A stretch of DNA of 64,000 bases from a virus. The stretch's first letter is position 1, and each line of letters opens with the position of its first letter. Under the pieces are notes generated by a model. The model ran no database searches, had not been told where the DNA came from, and saw only the letters and a program-made list of their open reading frames with translations. Both the position numbers and the translations under genes were made by a program. The DNA is taken from IMG/VR virus record IMGVR_UViG_3300028591_004246, positions 1-64,000 of that record, one strand, 5' to 3'. Positions 25,925 through 36,595 of the stretch are shown piece after piece.

Positions 25925-26737
25925 ATGCAATTAGCTATTCCATTCCAAGCGAATGGAAAACTTAATAGTAAAGCTGATGAATTTATAATTGATTATGATT
26001 CAAATAAAAATCAATATCAAAATTTAGTCAATTTTATTACAGCTTTCCCTGATAAAGTTATTAATATAAATATAAAATCTGAAATTAATTTTAAAGAATT
26101 AGAAACTTTAAATAAAATAGGTAAAATTAAAATAATTTTAAATCCAAGAAAATGAGCATTGTCCGCTCAATTTGTAGAGAAAGGTATTGATTTTTATTTT
26201 AAAGAAGAGTTAATTCCTTGTAACTATTATCAATTACATTCTATCTTATCTCTTGGCGTTTCAGATATTTATATTCAAGATGATTTATGTTATGAAATGG
26301 ATAATGTTAAAAGTTATTGTAGACAATATGGAGTAAACTTAAGAGTTGTTTTAAATACAATACCTCATTCAATGTTAATTAACCAAGAGGAAAAGAATAT
26401 TGTATTTTATAGACCTGAAGATACATATTTTGATTGATACTTTGATATTGCGGAATTTGATGTTACAACTCAAGATAATAAAATAAATTGAAATTTATTA
26501 AACGTTTTATATGATACTTATTTTATAAATAAAAGATGATATGGTAATTTGCAAGAAATTATTAAAGGTTTACCATTTGAAGTTTATAATAAATCTTTAG
26601 TTCCTGATTTTAATGAGTGTAAATTAAATTGTAAAATGAAATGTAGAAATAGACACTCTATTTGTAATAAGTGTAGTCAATTTTTAGATATATCAAATCT
26701 TTTAGTTGCAAAAGATATAAGATTTGATTTTAGTTAA
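25925..26737 (+). CDS. hypothetical protein of tail module (TGA-recoded)
   Basis: One reading frame runs through the 25925, 26159 and 26549 ORF fragments, joined by four in-frame TGA. Ends at TAA 26737. Confidence 0.45.
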
Positions 26738-26821
26738 CTTGGGCATTTTTGAGAAAAGAAGAGTGCGGAAAATATATTATTTTTAGATAAATAAAATACA
26801 AGGAGTAGAAAGGAGTTAATA

Positions 26822-29101
26822 TTGGATAGTGGTACAACATTTATTAGTAAAGCTGGATTACAACGTTTTTATGCTAGAATTTATGAAGTCTTTGCTAATA
26901 AAAATCATACCCATGTTGGTACTAATATAGATGCAGCTACTACAACTGTTCGTGGTACTGTTCAACCAGATGGGACTACAATTGATGTTACTGCTGCTGG
27001 TGTAATTAGTGCTAAGACCGCTACAGGAAGTGCTAAAGGTATCGTACAACCAGATGGTACTTCTATTAATATTAATAATGGAACAATTAGTGTTCCTGAT
27101 GCTAGTACAAGTCAAAAAGGACTTTTATCTTCTAGTGATAAAACTAAGTTAAATGGAGTTGCAACAGGAGCTACTAAAACAGAAGTTACTAATGCTACTA
27201 CTTTAACTATTACTGATAGTGCGGGAAGTACATCTACTTTTTCTGGTATGACTGCGGCTGAAAGAAGTAAATTATCTGGAATTGCGGACAATGCTAATAA
27301 TTATAGTTTACCCACAGCTTCATCAGATACTCTTGGTGGAATTAAAGTTGGTAATCATCTTTCAATTACAAATGGTGTTTTAACAATTGCTGATACTGTA
27401 GCATTAGTTTCTGCTTTATCTAATTATGTTACAACGACTGCTTTTAATACTTTTAAAACAGATGACTACGATGTTTTCAAATTAGCTCGTGAAACTAATT
27501 TTGGTGAAGATATTGGAGATGGACTTGCCGTTTCTCCTTTAAAGAAATTAGTAATTGATACTAACTTTCTTGGAGATTATATTTCAGAACAGTTTACTCC
27601 AGGTGTCGTAGTTCCTACTTATAATAGTAAGACAGGACAATATACAGGAATTCCAGAATGGTTAGCTAGTACACTTGAAGAAGATGAGCATAAAGATGAA
27701 ATTTATACAACTCGTATTCCTAAATGAGATACTAGCCATGATGTAGTTTGTGTTAAAACTGATGATAATGCTGGTCTTAGTGTAACGCCTTCAACAGAAA
27801 CTTATGCGGGAGCTGATGATTATAAAAACTTACCAGCTTTCAAAACTTGGGAGGTTAATGGTGGTTATAGTGGAACTGGCATTCCATATGTAACAGCATT
27901 TAAAGGTCGTGACTCTTGGTTTAGTAGAACTGGTGAAAATGGAGATGTCTGGATTATGACCCGTGTACTTTGGTATAAGTGGGAAGAAGATGAAGACTAT
28001 CAATATATTTCTATTTCTGCTAGTCCACAAACAGGATTTATTCCTGAACCTGGTGCTGTATTAGCAAATGGACAGTTAAGACCATTTATTCTTAGAGCTA
28101 AATATCCTATTGGAACTTACAATGGAAAGATTGCTTCTGTCTCTGGTGTTATGACTAGAGTAAGAGATATTTCTTATAATTCATTAATTACTTTAACAGC
28201 AGCTAAAGGTGCGGCTTATGGTAGTTTATCAGTTGATGACTTATGGTATTTTAAGACAATGATTCTTATTAAATATGCAACGAAATCTTCACAAATAGCC
28301 TTCCCTGGATGTACAAATCATTATTTAACTTATTATCCAGTTATTGCCGAGACAAATGTAACTCACGTTACTTTATCTGCTGCTAATGCTGCAAATATTC
28401 CTGTAGGAAGTACAATTTGTATAGGTACTTCTGACAGAGGTGGACAGATTATTAATAATGCAAAAGTAATTTCTAAAGAAACTACAGCAGATGGCGTTGC
28501 ATTAAATCTTAATACTACAACACCTTTTAGCACATTAACGACACATAGAGTAGATACTTTACCTTGGTACTGCGGTTCTTGCGATGAGGTACTTGGTAAT
28601 GATGGTTCACCTACTGGTGATATGAATGGTAAAGAGCCATTTATTCTTCAAGGTATTGAATATATGGTTGGTTGTTATGAAATTTCAACTGATATTATGT
28701 TTAATTGAACCAATAGTGAAGGACATATCTTAGTTGGTAAAGATCGTTCTACTAAGGTTTCTGGTAATTCAACAGGATTTGTTGATACTGGGCTTAAGGT
28801 AGGACAAGGTTCAAATGATGGATGGGTATATCCAACAGACTTTACTCATTTAGATGGATTAATTATTACGACCAATACAGGTGCAAGTCAAACTACTGGT
28901 GTAGGAGATGGCAACTGAACTTATAAGACTGGTACAACTCAAACAGGACTACGCGAGTTTCGGGCCTTCGGTAACCTCTCCTATGGTGGTATTGCCGGTG
29001 CTTCGTGCTTCGACTCGGATATCGTGCTTTCGGGCACGGACTGGACCAGTGGCGGGCGCCTTTCTGGAACAGATACTTATGGTACTTGGTCTAATAGTTA
29101 A
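26822..29101 (+). CDS. DGR target protein: tail-fibre-like receptor-binding protein with C-terminal variable repeat (TGA-recoded)
   Basis: Frame 2 is continuous across in-frame TGA at 27725, 28706 and 28916. Thr/Ser-rich fibre repeats. The C-terminus carries the VR: ...GNLSYGGIAGASCFDSDIVLSGTDWTSGGRL. Confidence 0.6.
28955..29060 (+). repeat. DGR variable repeat (VR)
   Basis: About 106 bp that matches the TR at 29249-29351 except at roughly 22 positions. Every one of those positions is an A in the TR. Ends in the GC-rich IMH-like ggcgggcgcc. Confidence 0.75.
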
Positions 29102-29248
29102 TTTTTAGTAATATAGGTTTAGACATTTTTAAAAGAAGGGATTTGTAACGAAAATTGTTCTGAAGCCCTTGCTTATGTTTCTAAACTGTATTTACTTTTC
29201 CTTTGGCGGGCGCTCCTTGGCGGGCGCTCGTGAGGTATAAAAAGTGCG

Positions 29249-29351
29249 GTTTCAGGCCTTCGGTAACCTCAACAATGGTGGTAATGCAGGTGCTTCATGC
29301 TTCAACTCGAATAACGAGCTTTCGAACACGAACTGGAACAATGGCGGGCGC
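29249..29351 (+). repeat. DGR template repeat (TR)
   Basis: Non-coding copy of the VR rich in AAC/AAT triplets. Ends in ggcgggcgct (IMH*-like). Two extra ggcgggcgct copies sit at 29205 and 29220. Confidence 0.75.
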
Positions 29352-29553
29352 TCATATTGATATTCTAAGTTTTTTATATATTACTTTTAGTAATATTAAA
29401 TATACTTGCGTTACATCTAGACTACATACTTTGCAAAAAGTCGTGATAGTTCATATGCCTGGCTCTTTTGAGTGAAATGTTATATTCAGAAAATTGGGTT
29501 AGTAGCCTATATGGTAGAAAACTCAATTTAGAATATCAATAAGAAAGTGAAAA

Positions 29554-34900: not shown

Positions 34901-35600
34901 TTAATTTAGGAGCTCAAGCATTACTAAAAGATAGTTCATATATTTATATAGGAGATAATAATACTATACAATTTGATTATGGTTTATTTAATAGAAATCT
35001 TGCGGAAGATTATATAGTTGAAATTAAACCTGAAAATTTTAAACATTATTTAGAAAATATAACTACATCTATAGAAGTAGCTACTTTTTTTAATGATTAT
35101 TATGGTAAATCAAATTTTAGAATTAAATCTCAAGATGATTTTAAAGTTTACGAATTAGCCTTTAACCAAGAGACAGAAGTATATGAAGTAGAAAAAATTT
35201 ATAATTATAAAACAGCTAGTGCGGACAATGACGGACTTCTTTCGGCCGCAGACAAAAATAAATTAGATAAAGTTAAGGATTATGAATTTGGTTCAATAGA
35301 ACCAGAAAATAATCGCTTATTTGATGGTATGCTTTGATTAAAAACAGAAGATAATATTATTAGTTTTAGAAGATGAACAGAAGTTGATGATAATGAAACT
35401 TTCAATTACCCCAGTGGAATTAATTATAGTAATATTAATTTGTATCCTGATGATAATATTTATCCTAATATAGATGCAGATTTAATATATCCTAGTGAAA
35501 AATTATTTGGAAGTTATATTTTAACTCCTAATACTAATATATATCCAGAAAATGATGCTTTCCCGCACAAGGGAAATGGTTGAATAATTTATACGACATA
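31909..35600 (+). CDS. giant tail fibre with collagen-like Gly-X-Y repeats (TGA-recoded)
   Basis: Frame 1 is continuous across the 31909, 33064 and 34015 ORF fragments, with at least 8 in-frame TGA. GEKGDTGATGPQGLTGPKGDKGDTGAKGDTGATGPQGEPG. Ends at TAA 35598-35600. Confidence 0.5.
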
Positions 35601-35614
35601 AAAGGAGGAAGAGA

Positions 35615-35890
35615 ATGGCTTATAGTAGAATTAATTTTAAAAATGGTGCGGAAGGTGGAACTCCTTTAAGCGCTGCTAATATGAATCATATAGAAGATGG
35701 AATAGTTGAACTTGAAACTAATAAACAAGATAAATTAACTGCGGGAAGTAATATTACAATTACTGGAAATACTATTTCTGCAACTGTCCCGCAAGTTCCT
35801 AATGAAACAGTTGATTTAACTTTTACTTATAGTGATGGAACGAGTGAGGTAATTTCCTTTGTAATTGATGATAGTAATGTTGGAGAATAA
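35615..35890 (+). CDS. hypothetical protein
   Basis: RBS aaaaggaggaaga. Confidence 0.45.
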   Translation: MAYSRINFKNGAEGGTPLSAANMNHIEDGIVELETNKQDKLTAGSNITITGNTISATVPQVPNETVDLTFTYSDGTSEVISFVIDDSNVGE

Positions 35891-35892
35891 AA

Positions 35893-36595
35893 ATGACAGC
35901 TATTAATTTTACAGATGTTCGTTCTATTGGATTACATAATAAAAATGTAATTCAAATTAGTTATACTAATTCAGGTGAAATTATTTGACCTACTCCTTCT
36001 CTACCTTCTAATTATACTCGTGGAGATTTTTTACAGCAACATTTATCTGATAATAGAGGTGCTCATTTTTCTCTTCCTATTGGTTTAACAGAAGATATTC
36101 AATTTGAAATTACTTTAAGTTTTAATACTTTAGGAGAAGAAGAGGAAGAAAAAAGAAATATTTTAGGTTGTTATGATGATGAAGAAAATGTAGTTTGAGG
36201 TTTACAAATTTTAAATAATGAGTTATATTTTAATGAAGAACTTGTTCAAAATTTTTCTTTGTCAGAAGATACAATTTACAATATAATTATATTAGATAAT
36301 GAGTTAAGGATTAATGGAAATTTAGTTCATACTTCTTTAATTCATCCTTTTGAATGAAATTATTTAGGTTTATATGATTTAATTTTACCAGACCAATCTA
36401 TTGATATTAATTTTCAACAAGCAGATATAAGTATTTACAAGGTAAGAATAAAAAATAATGGTACTTATTCTTACGATTGTGTACCTGTTGAAAATAATAA
36501 TACTCATTATACCGGTTTATATGATTTAATTGGTCAAAGATCTTTTTATGATAATCAAAATCCTACTATATTAACTGTAGGAACAAATTCTTAAG
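35893..36595 (+). CDS. hypothetical tail-module protein (TGA-recoded)
   Basis: ATG at 35893 overlaps the upstream stop. Several in-frame TGA. Ends at TAA 36595. Confidence 0.4.

Follow-up and report, generated by a model that had tools for sequence, protein, structure and literature searches.

The DNA analysed here, a window of 64,000 nucleotides, very probably comes from a large phage with two coding regimes, in which a tRNA(UCA) of the phage itself decodes TGA as Trp. Comparison with homologues shows TGA to be a Trp codon in about one quarter of the phage genes. The core of the sequence-only reading, namely TGA as Trp in a tail-fibre/DGR block and in scattered genes, with other genes free of TGA and a tRNA(UCA) present, is upheld. 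Its strict "late" label and its argument for novelty are not.

Recoded and TGA-free genes

The 75 genes considered contain 51 TGA and 167 TGG codons in total, and every one of them terminates with TAA or TAG. A class of 57 genes has 149 TGG and no TGA. It includes the long genes for which this had been claimed (the 803-aa MVP-like gene, the gyrase/topoisomerase subunits and the ligases), as well as a RecA-like ATPase and nucleotide and RNA-repair enzymes. The heterogeneity of TGA/TGG use among genes (G = 194.5) was reached by none of 20,000 permutations, and both codons occur together in seven genes versus 29.8 expected (minimum 20). Re-prediction of the genes, suggested earlier as a check, gave a coding density of 0.73 with code 11, compared with 0.85 with code 4.

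The share of Trp codons is 1.27% in the TGA-free genes. The recoded genes have 0.37% if TGG alone is counted and 1.41% if TGG and TGA are taken together. Among comparable two-fold codons, those ending in A make up 78% in the TGA-free class and 88% in the recoded class, where TGA accounts for 74% of the Trp codons, or 87% if the DGR target is left out. As the TGA level of the recoded genes is what A+T mutation pressure predicts, TGA behaves there as a free synonym of TGG. In the TGA-free genes TGA is selected against.

The largest group of recoded genes forms a contiguous block (Table 1). Its ORFs, at 25925-36594 (about 3,350 codons in the code-4 ORF tables), have 27 in-frame TGA and no TAA or TAG, and its DNA is 70% A+T. 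The claim that all genes from 25.9 to 36.6 kb need a sense TGA is valid for every coding gene that has a Trp codon. It does not extend to 35615-35890, which lacks TGA and any Trp codon, nor to the "ORF" at 29203-29502, which is the DGR template repeat and no gene; the ORF at 31027-31326 is probably spurious. Searches of Pfam and PHROG gave no match for the first product of the block. The DGR target matches phrog_17147 (3e-71) and Phage_head_fibr and carries the variable repeat at 28957-29059, which differs from the template at 16 positions, all 16 at template adenines. The small gene 3' of the reverse transcriptase (RT) occupies the position of a 116-119 aa gene in two standard-code homologue loci.

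Table 1. Features of the window that bear on the reading of TGA
Feature	Coordinates	Strand	Remarks
Minus-strand gene	4623..5012	-	2 TGA, 1 TGG
Sortase	18404..19207	+	3 TGA, 0 TGG
DUF3310 protein	20477..20698	+	1 TGA, codon 27
First gene of block, unknown function	25925..26737	+	4 TGA, 0 TGG
DGR target protein, tail or head fibre-like	26822..29101	+	3 TGA, 11 TGG
DGR template repeat	29249..29351	+	Inside spurious ORF 29203-29502
DGR reverse transcriptase	29554..30633	+	RVT_1; 5 TGA, 2 TGG
Small gene 3' of RT	30620..30973	+	3 TGA, 0 TGG
Predicted membrane protein	31302..31688	+	1 TGA past likely start (start inferred); phrog_4105, phrog_4257
Collagen-like tail fibre, 1230 aa	31909..35601	+	8 TGA, 0 TGG
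Last gene of block	35893..36594	+	3 TGA, 0 TGG
Two consensus sigma-70-type promoters	36613..36746	+	12/12 and 11/12 matches, 18-nt spacer; predicted
tRNA(UCA), 96 nt	37867..37962	+	Anticodon 37899-37901; A1-U72 pair, G73 discriminator
ORF	39286..39816	+	1 TGA, 1 TGG
Canonical tRNA-Trp(CCA)	40933..41006	+	Anticodon loop CUCCAAA
LPXTG pilin-like surface protein	43950..45758	+	4 TGA, 1 TGG; GramPos_pilinBB, SpaA, Gram_pos_anchor
ThyX thymidylate synthase	47800..48408	+	5 TGA, 1 TGG
DprA/SLOG-like protein	51030..51398	+	3 TGA, 0 TGG
DnaB-like helicase, cut by window end	62511..64000	+	TGA at 63948

About 11 genes outside the block likewise need a sense TGA. The six listed earlier (the minus-strand gene, the DUF3310 gene, the ORF at 39286, and the pilin, ThyX and DprA-like genes) were all verified, and the sortase, several small ORFs and the DnaB-like helicase were added. 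The helicase ORF continues for 39 codons in the sequence L006.

TGA at tryptophan positions

Alignment with homologues placed 10 of 12 tested TGAs on Trp-dominant columns, including standard-code homologues that have TGG, and none on a Ser, Gly or Cys column. At the five TGAs of the RT (29617, 29650, 29875, 29935 and 30301), Trp is found in 45/45, 31/46, 26/46, 41/46 and 45/45 of the 46 homologues; homologues L039 and L040 have TGG and no in-frame TGA. The TGAs at 29650 and 30301 had both been equated with Trp residues of Bordetella bRT. The second aligns with such a residue (PDB 8ub7), and the first falls outside the alignment. The DUF3310 site, described before as a family-conserved Trp, is Trp in all 52 close homologues, one of which (L395) was verified to have TGG, though the broad Pfam profile has no preference for Trp there. 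In ThyX, three of the five TGAs are on near-invariant Trp (115/120, 114/120 and 120/120) and two on variable columns, and its Pfam score is best when TGA is substituted by Trp. The helicase TGA is on a conserved Trp that six standard-code homologues encode by TGG.

The same exchange is seen among relatives 93-98% identical to the window, with five changes of TGA to TGG, six of TGG to TGA and one of TGA to another codon. In relative L001, the TGAs at 26489, 30839 and 33004 are TGG and the TGGs at 27659 and 27848 are TGA; the TGG at 4805 is TGA in the L004 lineage. L001 and the window differ at 390 sites, 237 of them third positions, with 221 synonymous and 143 non-synonymous codon changes.

The tRNAs

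As had been claimed, the phage carries both a canonical tRNA-Trp(CCA) and a tRNA with the anticodon UCA, the latter at the same site in both relatives. In its first base pair and discriminator, tRNA(UCA) shows the acceptor signature of bacterial tRNA-Trp. The long variable arm folds into a hairpin at 37914-37930, and the 7 nt of its loop (GUCCAAA, 37919-37925) are a copy of the anticodon loop of tRNA-Trp. This design is found in many unrelated IMG/VR phage contigs, across which the arm stem covaries and the loop keeps a UCCAA motif. The tRNA-Ile(UAU) of the window bears a GAU-loop arm of similar kind. Literature searches, with the sources accessible in part, yielded no published description of such an anticodon copy.

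The tRNA(UCA) of the window has a 7/5 fold. The syntenic tRNA of L001 has an 8/4 fold and a 6-bp D stem, and scores 50 bits in the Rfam tRNA-Sec model (threshold 47). Charging of tRNA(UCA) with Trp by TrpRS is suggested by the codon evidence and the acceptor signature. No TrpRS or release-factor gene was seen within the window. A long variable arm together with G73 is a hallmark of SerRS substrates and counts against Trp charging.

Expression, host and alternative explanations

Twenty-four consensus sigma-70-type promoters were predicted versus 6.6 in shuffled sequences, located 5' of the tRNA array, where the promoter pair of Table 1 lies, and 5' of TGA-free genes. One lies within the recoded block, close to the 3' end. 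The association with TGA-free genes (10/11) is not significant by itself. Since the tRNA array stands behind such promoters, host RNA polymerase could make tRNA(UCA) from the start of infection. A strict late-only reading fails because recoding extends to ThyX, the DprA-like gene and the DnaB-like helicase. ThyX has its own predicted 11/12 promoter, and the DprA-like gene follows immediately on TGA-free genes in a run led by a predicted sigma-70-type promoter. The window contains no gene for capsid, portal or terminase, and the structural-gene bias thus comes down to the fibre/DGR module.

In the proposed mechanism, the window would be part of a jumbo-class phage whose host, probably Gram-positive, uses the standard code. 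Some three quarters of the phage genes avoid TGA and would hence be translatable by the ribosomes of the uninfected host. In the remaining genes (fibre/DGR block, sortase, pilin, ThyX, DprA-like, DUF3310 and small ORFs) TGA is the main Trp codon, and one codon of the DnaB-like helicase is recoded as well. These genes would be readable only with the phage tRNA(UCA), whose variable arm may offer TrpRS the CCA that it normally reads, the UCA reading the codon. As all genes end in TAA or TAG, suppression of TGA costs the phage nothing. Full-length translation of the recoded genes would occur only after the suppressor tRNA accumulates, and the mixed code might have a timing or anti-host role.

The same decoding could also go with a gene pattern shaped by history and drift and not by a timing device, which is possible, although rather unlikely. 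A+T pressure would add TGA where it is tolerated, and the TGA-free genes would be those needed before the tRNA or recently acquired. Recoded genes are indeed scattered among replication and nucleotide genes, and their TGA share equals the mutational expectation. The DGR target looks half-way recoded and gains TGAs in L001, and in one lineage, at an ordinary 92% identity, point mutations gave the orthologue of 7894-8643 three new TGAs. However, 149 TGG against no TGA in 57 genes demands strong selection, and a contiguous 11-kb block with promoters only outside or at its edge suggests organisation. In other clades, according to the available text of Borges et al. (bioRxiv 10.1101/2021.08.26.457843), recoding is statistically biased towards genes for lysis and structure.

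A host that itself uses genetic code 4, with the phage following it, is improbable. The low G+C content (about 30%) and the TGA-to-Trp code of Mollicutes would fit, but such a host gives no reason for the purge of TGA from 57 genes. The phage also carries its own tRNA(UCA) and tRNA-Trp(CCA), and its sortase and LPXTG pilin need a cell wall. The host is probably Gram-positive and would use the standard code.

More improbable still is that TGA means Ser or a Ser/Trp mixture, as with allo-tRNAs, or Gly (code 25), Cys or Sec. The SerRS-like features and the tRNA-Sec-like L001 fold point that way, and such tRNAs insert Ser in E. coli (Mukai et al., PMC5389517). Against this stand the Trp-dominant alignment columns, the exchange with TGG only (one exception) in relatives, the ThyX profile score and the near absence of Trp that would result in recoded genes; 51 TGAs argue against Sec. 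The view that the TGA-containing frames are pseudogenes or deliberately truncated products, in keeping with the short ORFs into which code 11 breaks the block, is in practice refuted, because the full-length frames are under purifying selection (at 7% divergence, L001 and the window show neither new stops nor indels over 2,918 codons), their TGAs are at conserved Trp positions and the DGR mismatches are cleanly adenine-only.

Comparison with known systems

The combination of a Gram-positive host with recoding to Trp had been considered new. This argument fails because Borges et al., in the text available, already describe TGA-to-Trp mixed-code phages of gut Firmicutes, in which replication genes keep the standard code, lysis and structural genes are recoded and suppressor tRNAs are present (bioRxiv 10.1101/2021.08.26.457843). 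As far as that text goes, the present phage resembles their Jade and Agate clades: it is large, has in-frame TGAs where Trp is encoded, brings its own TGA suppressor tRNA, keeps most replication genes in the standard code but recodes structural ones, and has a likely Firmicute host. It differs in that a TrpRS/RF1 "code-change operon" was not seen in the window, recoding reaches ThyX, the DprA-like gene and the helicase as well, and TGA use per gene is nearly all-or-none. The same text was found to hold no mention of the anticodon-mimic arm. Standard-code and reassigned-stop parts also coexist in crAss-like phages (Mgcod, 10.1101/2022.06.29.495998; Yutin et al., PMC7886860), reported to infect Bacteroidetes (PMC7886860). 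Those have two clean blocks, unlike the single 11-kb block and many isolated recoded genes here.

Phage tRNA(UCA)s for Trp at UGA are known from the TrpRS:tRNA-Trp(UCA) pairs of phages AP1 and HF2, whose tRNAs were shown experimentally to insert Trp at UGA in competition with RF2; 13 phage tRNA(UCA)s inserted Trp in E. coli extract (PMC12636597). The AP1 and HF2 tRNAs are paired with a phage TrpRS; none was seen in the window, and that paper has no discussion of the variable arm. Allo-tRNAs and tRNA-Sec-like tRNAs share the long variable arm and, with the L001 version, the 8/4 fold and 6-bp D stem. They occur in phages and rumen Clostridia, some with UCA anticodons, and are serylated, or cysteinylated with U73 (Mukai et al. 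2017, PMC5389517). The phage tRNA differs from them by codon evidence for Trp, the A1-U72 first pair, the UCCAA arm-loop motif and, in the window, the 7/5 fold.

Code 4 of Mycoplasma and Spiroplasma also reads UGA as Trp through a UCA-anticodon tRNA with Trp identity, but that code applies throughout the genome and in the host, and in the present phage TGA is confined to some of the genes. Their tRNA-Trp(UCA) is ordinary, with a short variable loop, and lacks the extra arm of the phage tRNA. Nematode nev-tRNAs are reportedly charged with Leu because of their arm, causing mistranslation. They too combine a long variable arm with an anticodon that is not for Ser or Leu (PMC3333845); the arm here, unlike theirs, appears to keep the cognate identity (Trp, Ile) and not to override it. 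The anticodon-mimic arm is the new lead from this phage.

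TGA as a sense codon

Once TAA and TAG are taken as the sole stops, the ORF listing gives an unbroken run of plus-strand genes from 25925 to 36594. The seven recoded ORFs of this block contain no TAA or TAG in about 3,350 codons of DNA that is 70% A+T. The sequence-only reading had held that all genes of the block require TGA as a sense codon. This stands for the seven ORFs but not for 35615-35890, which has neither TGA nor any Trp codon. Two other stretches taken as genes do not hold up: the "ORF" 29203-29502 is the template repeat (TR) of the diversity-generating retroelement (DGR), and 31027-31326 is probably spurious. 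Outside the block, every scattered gene that had been named as TGA-containing (the minus-strand gene at 4623-5012, the DUF3310, LPXTG, ThyX and DprA-like genes and that at 39286-39816) proved to be so in the ORF listing, and the long genes that had been named are TGA-free. The sortase gene, the DnaB-like helicase gene at the window's end and several small ORFs, all absent from that reading, also contain TGA. Re-prediction of the genes gave a coding density of 0.85 under code 4 (TGA = Trp) versus 0.73 under code 11.

Features of the window and of homologous loci
Feature	Coordinates	Strand	Remarks
Gene	25925-26737	+	4 in-frame TGA
DGR target gene	26822-29101	+	3 in-frame TGA
Variable repeat (VR)	28957-29059		3' end of DGR target gene
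Template repeat (TR)	29249-29351
Reverse transcriptase (RT) gene	29554-30633	+	5 in-frame TGA
Gene	30620-30973	+	3 in-frame TGA
Gene	31302-31688	+	1 in-frame TGA
Tail fibre gene, 1230 aa	31909-35601	+	8 in-frame TGA
Gene	35893-36594	+	3 in-frame TGA
Gene	4623-5012	-	TGA
Sortase gene	18404-19207		TGA
DUF3310 gene	20477-20698		TGA
Gene	39286-39816		TGA
LPXTG protein gene	43950-45758		TGA
ThyX gene	47800-48408		TGA
DprA-like gene	51030-51398		TGA
DnaB-like helicase gene	window's end		TGA at 63948
Metallophosphatase gene	7894-8643		TGA-free
803-aa protein gene	11856-14267
RNA-handling gene set	10629-11618, 21767-23218, 52042-52830, 48576-49217
HNH endonuclease gene	37032-37553		between tRNA genes
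tRNA(UCA)	37867-37962		suppressor
tRNA-Ile(UAU) with GAU-loop arm	43620-43710		also at loci L194-L274, L076, L095, L385
tRNA, anticodon CAU	42760-42831
ROOL RNA	41280-41927		within tRNA region
Candidate sigma-70 promoters, examples	2696-2725, 7829-7858, 23282-23311, 36613-36642, 39827-39856, 39909-39938, 41018-41047, 50237-50266, 54105-54134		41018-41047 is a perfect consensus promoter with the ROOL RNA

The recoded genes are live, which answers the concern that they might be pseudogenes. Compared with the relative L001 the block has 390 differences, 237 of them at third codon positions, giving 221 synonymous and 143 non-synonymous codon changes, and no new TAA, TAG or indel was found in the 2,918 codons compared. 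The DGR is canonical: all 16 mismatches between VR and TR fall at TR adenines, and the RT is identified by an RVT_1 match and by homology to the Bordetella phage enzyme (bRT). The TGA at 28916 lies outside the VR and was rejected as a DGR-variable site.

The residue encoded by TGA

Four independent lines of evidence support the earlier claim that TGA is read as Trp. First, homologues were aligned with TGA masked as X. At the five TGA sites of the RT, Trp is found in 45/45, 31/46 (the others His or Tyr), 26/46 (the others Tyr), 41/46 and 45/45 homologues. Three of the five ThyX sites lie on Trp columns (115/120, 114/120 and 120/120) and two on variable columns. The DUF3310 site, said to be the family-conserved Trp, is indeed Trp in 52/52 close homologues, and the helicase TGA falls within the conserved motif ..YLWMxADKGTCRF... 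This last TGA stands for a conserved Trp close to a 3' end, with 39 codons of the frame still to come; the sortase and tail fibre genes also have TGA near their 3' ends, and the check covered the helicase alone. Second, TGG encodes the same Trp residues in the RT of the homologue loci L039 and L040, in six helicase homologues and in the DUF3310 gene of a third locus (L395), none with in-frame TGA there, so the assignment is not circular. Third, in close IMG/VR relatives (L001 and L004 at about 93% identity; L002, L003 and L006 at about 98%) 60 TGA codons are kept, five are replaced by TGG and one by TAC, and TGG changes to TGA six times between the window and the relatives. Fourth, the share of TGG among all codons is 1.27% in the TGA-free class but 0.37% in the recoded class, where counting TGA as well brings it to 1.41%.

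It had also been claimed that two RT TGAs sit opposite Trp residues of bRT. In the bRT structure (PDB 8ub7) this is borne out for 30301, and 29650 falls outside the alignment. In a Pfam substitution test ThyX weakly favours Trp and the DUF3310 profile does not; we take the latter to be overruled by the 52/52 close homologues. PDB structures of ThyX were uninformative, the TGA sites being on variable columns among these distant homologues, and closer homologues were used instead. No Gly, Ser or Cys column was found under the tested TGAs, and on the alignment evidence Sec, Gly, Cys and Ser were rejected as readings.

Two classes of genes

The use of TGA is close to all-or-none per gene. A curated set of 75 gene models (16,680 codons) contains 51 TGA and 167 TGG codons, and all 75 models end in TAA or TAG. 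TGA and TGG occur together in only seven genes versus 29.8 expected (20,000 permutations, minimum 20), and the heterogeneity across genes (G = 194.5) was matched by none of 20,000 permutations. The TGA-free class consists of 57 genes with 149 TGG and no TGA. It includes the RNA ligase, the major-vault-protein (MVP)-shoulder/SPFH protein, NUDIX, metallophosphatases, the Ro/TROVE-like RNA-binding protein, the HNH endonuclease, the SpoU methylase, dCMP deaminase, RlaP, both type II topoisomerase subunits, the ATP-dependent DNA ligase and an AAA_24 ATPase. The recoded class consists of 18 genes with 51 TGA and 18 TGG, of which the DGR target by itself accounts for 11 TGG. Recoding takes in the whole fibre/DGR block and likewise the sortase, the Gram-positive pilin, ThyX and the DprA/SLOG-like protein; DUF3310 and small ORFs also belong here. 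The helicase, with one TGA codon, is the exception among replication genes.

In recoded genes TGA accounts for 74% of Trp codons (87% without the DGR target), versus 88% A-ending codons in the other two-fold purine sets. In TGA-free genes the A-ending share is 78% and that of TGA is 0%. TGA has thus been purged from one class and behaves as a neutral synonym in the other. This purge makes the strongest case for a host in which TGA is a stop codon, since nothing would keep the codon out of these genes in a code-4 host. Together with the sortase and LPXTG genes, this avoidance of TGA points to a standard-code host; the sortase gave no host match among GTDB genomes.

The metallophosphatase at 7894-8643, with six TGG, has gained TGA at three of these in the L004 lineage (~17600-18350), where the start ATG is GTG and the motif GDxHG is GDxHR. 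Either the L004 orthologue has joined the recoded genes, or it is in decay. Allele replacement is ruled out as the source of the gain by an ordinary identity of 92%. No capsid, portal or terminase gene was found within the 64-kb window; judging from relatives (L005, a further one, is on a 143-kb contig) the genome runs at least 125 kb beyond it, and the mosaic of recoded and TGA-free genes goes on there.

Candidate promoters

Near-consensus promoters of the sigma-70 type number 24 versus 6.6 in shuffles (maximum 13), counted as consensus matches. All 24 have an 18-nt spacer and 11 are perfect TTGACA-N18-TATAAT. Twenty-two are intergenic, ahead of TGA-free genes and the tRNA/ROOL arrays. Two lie directly 3' of the recoded block, ahead of the tRNA array that contains tRNA(UCA), and the 11-kb block itself has a single candidate, near its 3' end. 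This layout would fit a program in which host-transcribed genes and the suppressor tRNA are made first and the recoded genes later. As evidence for timing it is weak because a separate 11/12 promoter serves ThyX, no gap parts the DprA-like gene from the TGA-free genes ahead of it, and the gene-level association (10/11) is not significant. Divergent consensus promoters also stand on either side of a minus-strand gene block at 4000-8000, which has a strongly negative GC skew (-0.4 to -0.5) and holds an HTH protein and two TGA-containing genes.

The suppressor tRNA(UCA)

The phage tRNA(UCA) is labeled "tRNA-SeC" by ARAGORN because of its anticodon only; in Rfam it scores best with the general tRNA model (56 bits). 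The 96-nt molecule has 7 bp in the acceptor stem, 5 bp in the T stem and an ordinary D arm with a 4-bp stem. Its ends, ACUCCCA...UGGGAGU-G-CCA, carry A1-U72 and G73, the acceptor signature of bacterial tRNA-Trp, which is also present in the phage's own tRNA-Trp(CCA). The anticodon loops are CUUCAAA and CUCCAAA, respectively. The variable region of tRNA(UCA) spans 26 nt from the anticodon stem to the T stem and folds into a hairpin in which 5 bp close the 7-nt loop GUCCAAA. This loop (U-CCA-A) is, by its sequence, a copy of the Trp anticodon loop. The molecule thus differs from bacterial tRNA-Trp in its UCA anticodon, in lacking the short class I variable loop, and in having CCA in the loop of a variable arm.

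A tRNA(UCA) is kept at the same site in both relatives compared. In L001, a relative of about 93% identity, an unrelated tRNA(UCA) gene (18627-18722) has taken the syntenic place and cannot be aligned with that of the window. Its product combines an 8/4 acceptor/T branch with a D arm of 6 bp and a 4-nt loop; it resembles tRNA-Sec and scores 50 bits with the Rfam model of that tRNA, RF01852 (threshold 47). It nevertheless shares A1-U72, G73 and the anticodon loop CUUCAAA, and its 6-bp variable arm has the identical loop GUCCAAA. The tRNA array is being reshuffled. The HNH endonuclease gene within it is present in L002 and is not alignable in L001, which has extra tRNA-Leu genes there.

The codon evidence, and the report that 13 phage tRNA(UCA)s inserted Trp and were charged by E. 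coli TrpRS (PMC12636597), suggest that the window's tRNA(UCA) is aminoacylated by TrpRS. A serine-type allo-tRNA (Mukai 2017) has a long variable arm and an 8/4 or 9/3 fold; the window tRNA is 7/5, and decoding as Ser is contradicted by the codons. Bacterial tRNA-Sec (selC) has 8 bp in the acceptor stem, 5 bp in the T stem and a D arm of 6 bp with a 4-nt loop, and serves rare SECIS-dependent UGA codons; it is rejected on the 7/5 fold, the 4-bp D stem, the match to the general tRNA model, and the 51 TGAs, mostly Trp where tested. Both rejections would extend to the L001 tRNA despite its 8/4 branch, as it appears to serve the same Trp codons.

A tRNA-Ile(UAU) of the same design

The tRNA-Ile(UAU) of the window (91 nt, A73) has the variable arm CGA-CAGAUAA-UCG, in which the 7-nt loop carries GAU-A-A and copies the anticodon loop of tRNA-Ile(GAU), CUGAUAA. 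The analogous pattern occurs at 82 IMG/VR places, 72 of which are tRNA-Ile(UAU) (42 unique, about 91 nt) with [C/U][A/U]GAUAA as the arm loop and with covarying arm stems (CGA/UCG, CAA/UUG, GCGC/GCGC, UCGG/CCGA, UGCAC/GUGCG and others). In sequence retrieved for other purposes, the GAUAA loop is present in 4/4 long-arm tRNA(UAU)s, and a long arm was found in 0/35 tRNA-Trp(CCA) and 0/28 tRNA-Ile(GAU) genes. In both the Trp and the Ile families position 34 alone sets the decoding anticodon apart from the cognate one, which recurs in the arm. Long variable arms are also seen in the phage locus L209 (IMGVR_UViG_3300025237_000001, 3625-6687), on tRNAs whose anticodons are those of His, Met(CAU) and Asn, with CUUAUAA in the arm of the CAU tRNA. 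These may be further informative arms.

Distribution of the anticodon-copy arm

When both loops were required, the pattern was found at 41 IMG/VR places, 32 of them tRNA(UCA) genes of 93-100 nt (29 unique). Their scaffolds vary, many being plainly tRNA-Trp-like (AGGGGC...GCCCCUG), and a normal GGUG variable loop is retained after the inserted hairpin. With a pattern that ignores the arm, the matches listed include 34 unique tRNA(UCA)s, 13 with a short variable loop; among them UCCAA is present in 15 of 21 with a long arm, and four of the six long arms without UCCAA have no CCA motif and resemble tRNA-Sec. Among these tRNAs some have CUCCAAA itself as the arm loop. In 35 distinct arms pairing reaches 89.7% over the five base pairs next to the loop, versus 49.5% in shuffles, none of 500 being as high; the covariation score is 1.03 versus 0.25, and slid registers are 27-46% paired.

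When bacterial genomes were scanned with the pattern, most of the tRNAs matched proved to be genuine selC from Caulobacterales and Acidobacteria, with GUCC in the arm stem, so the motif by itself is no diagnostic mark. MAG contigs of Phoenicibacter, Parabacteroides, Gemmiger and Bacteroides carry Trp-like versions. For contigs with CCA-arm tRNAs, counting ORFs with a central in-frame TGA gave 48-51%, versus 33% in the control, a crude measure that G+C-rich contigs inflate with spurious TGA-sense ORFs. No published description of an anticodon-copy variable arm was found in a search that left out most subscription journals, where an earlier description is possible. Our tentative proposal, held with some reserve, is that these tRNAs may represent a widespread, undescribed phage class which decodes with its real anticodon and displays a copy of the cognate anticodon in the variable arm for the synthetase.

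Proposed role of the arm

The anticodon is a major identity element for TrpRS and IleRS, so a U34 variant should be a poorer substrate. The variable arm would supply the missing element, U-CCA-A for TrpRS and GAU-A-A for IleRS, while the new codon would be read by UCA or UAU. The arm might dock into the anticodon-binding domain of the synthetase; alternatively, the anticodon hairpin and the arm hairpin might exchange stacking positions in the synthetase complex. This role is favoured by a loop that is conserved across unrelated scaffolds, by the match of the loop to identity (CCA with UCA, GAU with UAU), and by the retention of Trp acceptor features. It also counts in favour that the variable-arm side is the one by which class Ic synthetases reach the tRNA, and that bacterial TyrRS, the TrpRS paralogue, binds the long arm of tRNA-Tyr. 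Against it count the location of the anticodon, which is not at the variable-arm tip, the approach of IleRS from the other side, and the lack of an arm in 13 of the 34 tRNA(UCA)s among the matches listed. Further points against are that E. coli TrpRS charged the 13 phage tRNA(UCA)s with Trp (PMC12636597) and that a long arm with G73 normally attracts SerRS (PMC5389517).

If the proposal is right, the arm would explain how recoded phages get their suppressors charged by host synthetases, and would be a new way of uncoupling tRNA identity from decoding that is relevant to genetic-code expansion. Many phage "tRNA-Sec" database calls would then be Trp suppressors, and so markers of TGA recoding. 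The CCA hairpin makes for a definite hypothesis, open to mutational tests, and the GAU hairpin of tRNA-Ile(UAU) strengthens it.

Other features of the window

The RNA-handling genes comprise an RNA ligase, a Ro/TROVE-like RNA-binding protein (phrog_850), an RlaP RNA-repair nucleotidyltransferase and a SpoU methylase. They are accompanied by 26 tRNA genes (25 called by ARAGORN and one by Rfam only) and by a full-length ROOL RNA (RF03087, 298 bits). The Rfam-only tRNA (38 bits, loop CUCAUAA) is Met or Ile2-like. The 803-aa protein has MVP shoulder and SPFH/Band 7 domains; its sole GenBank-phage relatives, at 44-47% identity, are in the 462-735 kb huge phages LR756500-LR756503. The sortase and the LPXTG pilin-backbone-like protein (GramPos_pilinBB, SpaA) are phage-encoded and both use TGA for Trp.

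Comparison with known systems

By megablast the recoded block has no match among GenBank phages, and at the protein level the sole GenBank-phage relatives are the same huge phages, which are unannotated. No TrpRS or release-factor domain was found in the scanned window proteins. Block-wise dual coding has already been described in crAss-like phages. Borges et al. (bioRxiv 10.1101/2021.08.26.457843) describe TGA-to-Trp phages with predicted Firmicutes hosts, in which the replication machinery is in standard code and genes for lysis and structure are recoded. Of these genomes 35% have TGA suppressor tRNAs and two have RF1 plus TrpRS; how host synthetases charge the suppressors is left open there. 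The window phage is of this kind: its tested TGAs mostly fall on the Trp of homologues, TGA ends none of the 75 gene models, it has a suppressor tRNA(UCA), and a replication subset is in the standard code. Novelty had been seen in a Gram-positive host combined with recoding to Trp, which is already in Borges et al. Partial TGA-to-Trp recoding itself is therefore an already-known kind of phage biology, and the window adds one more well-documented two-code phage, probably from the ruminant gut, with unusually clean numbers; all-or-none TGA use per gene and its match to the mutational expectation sharpen the picture.
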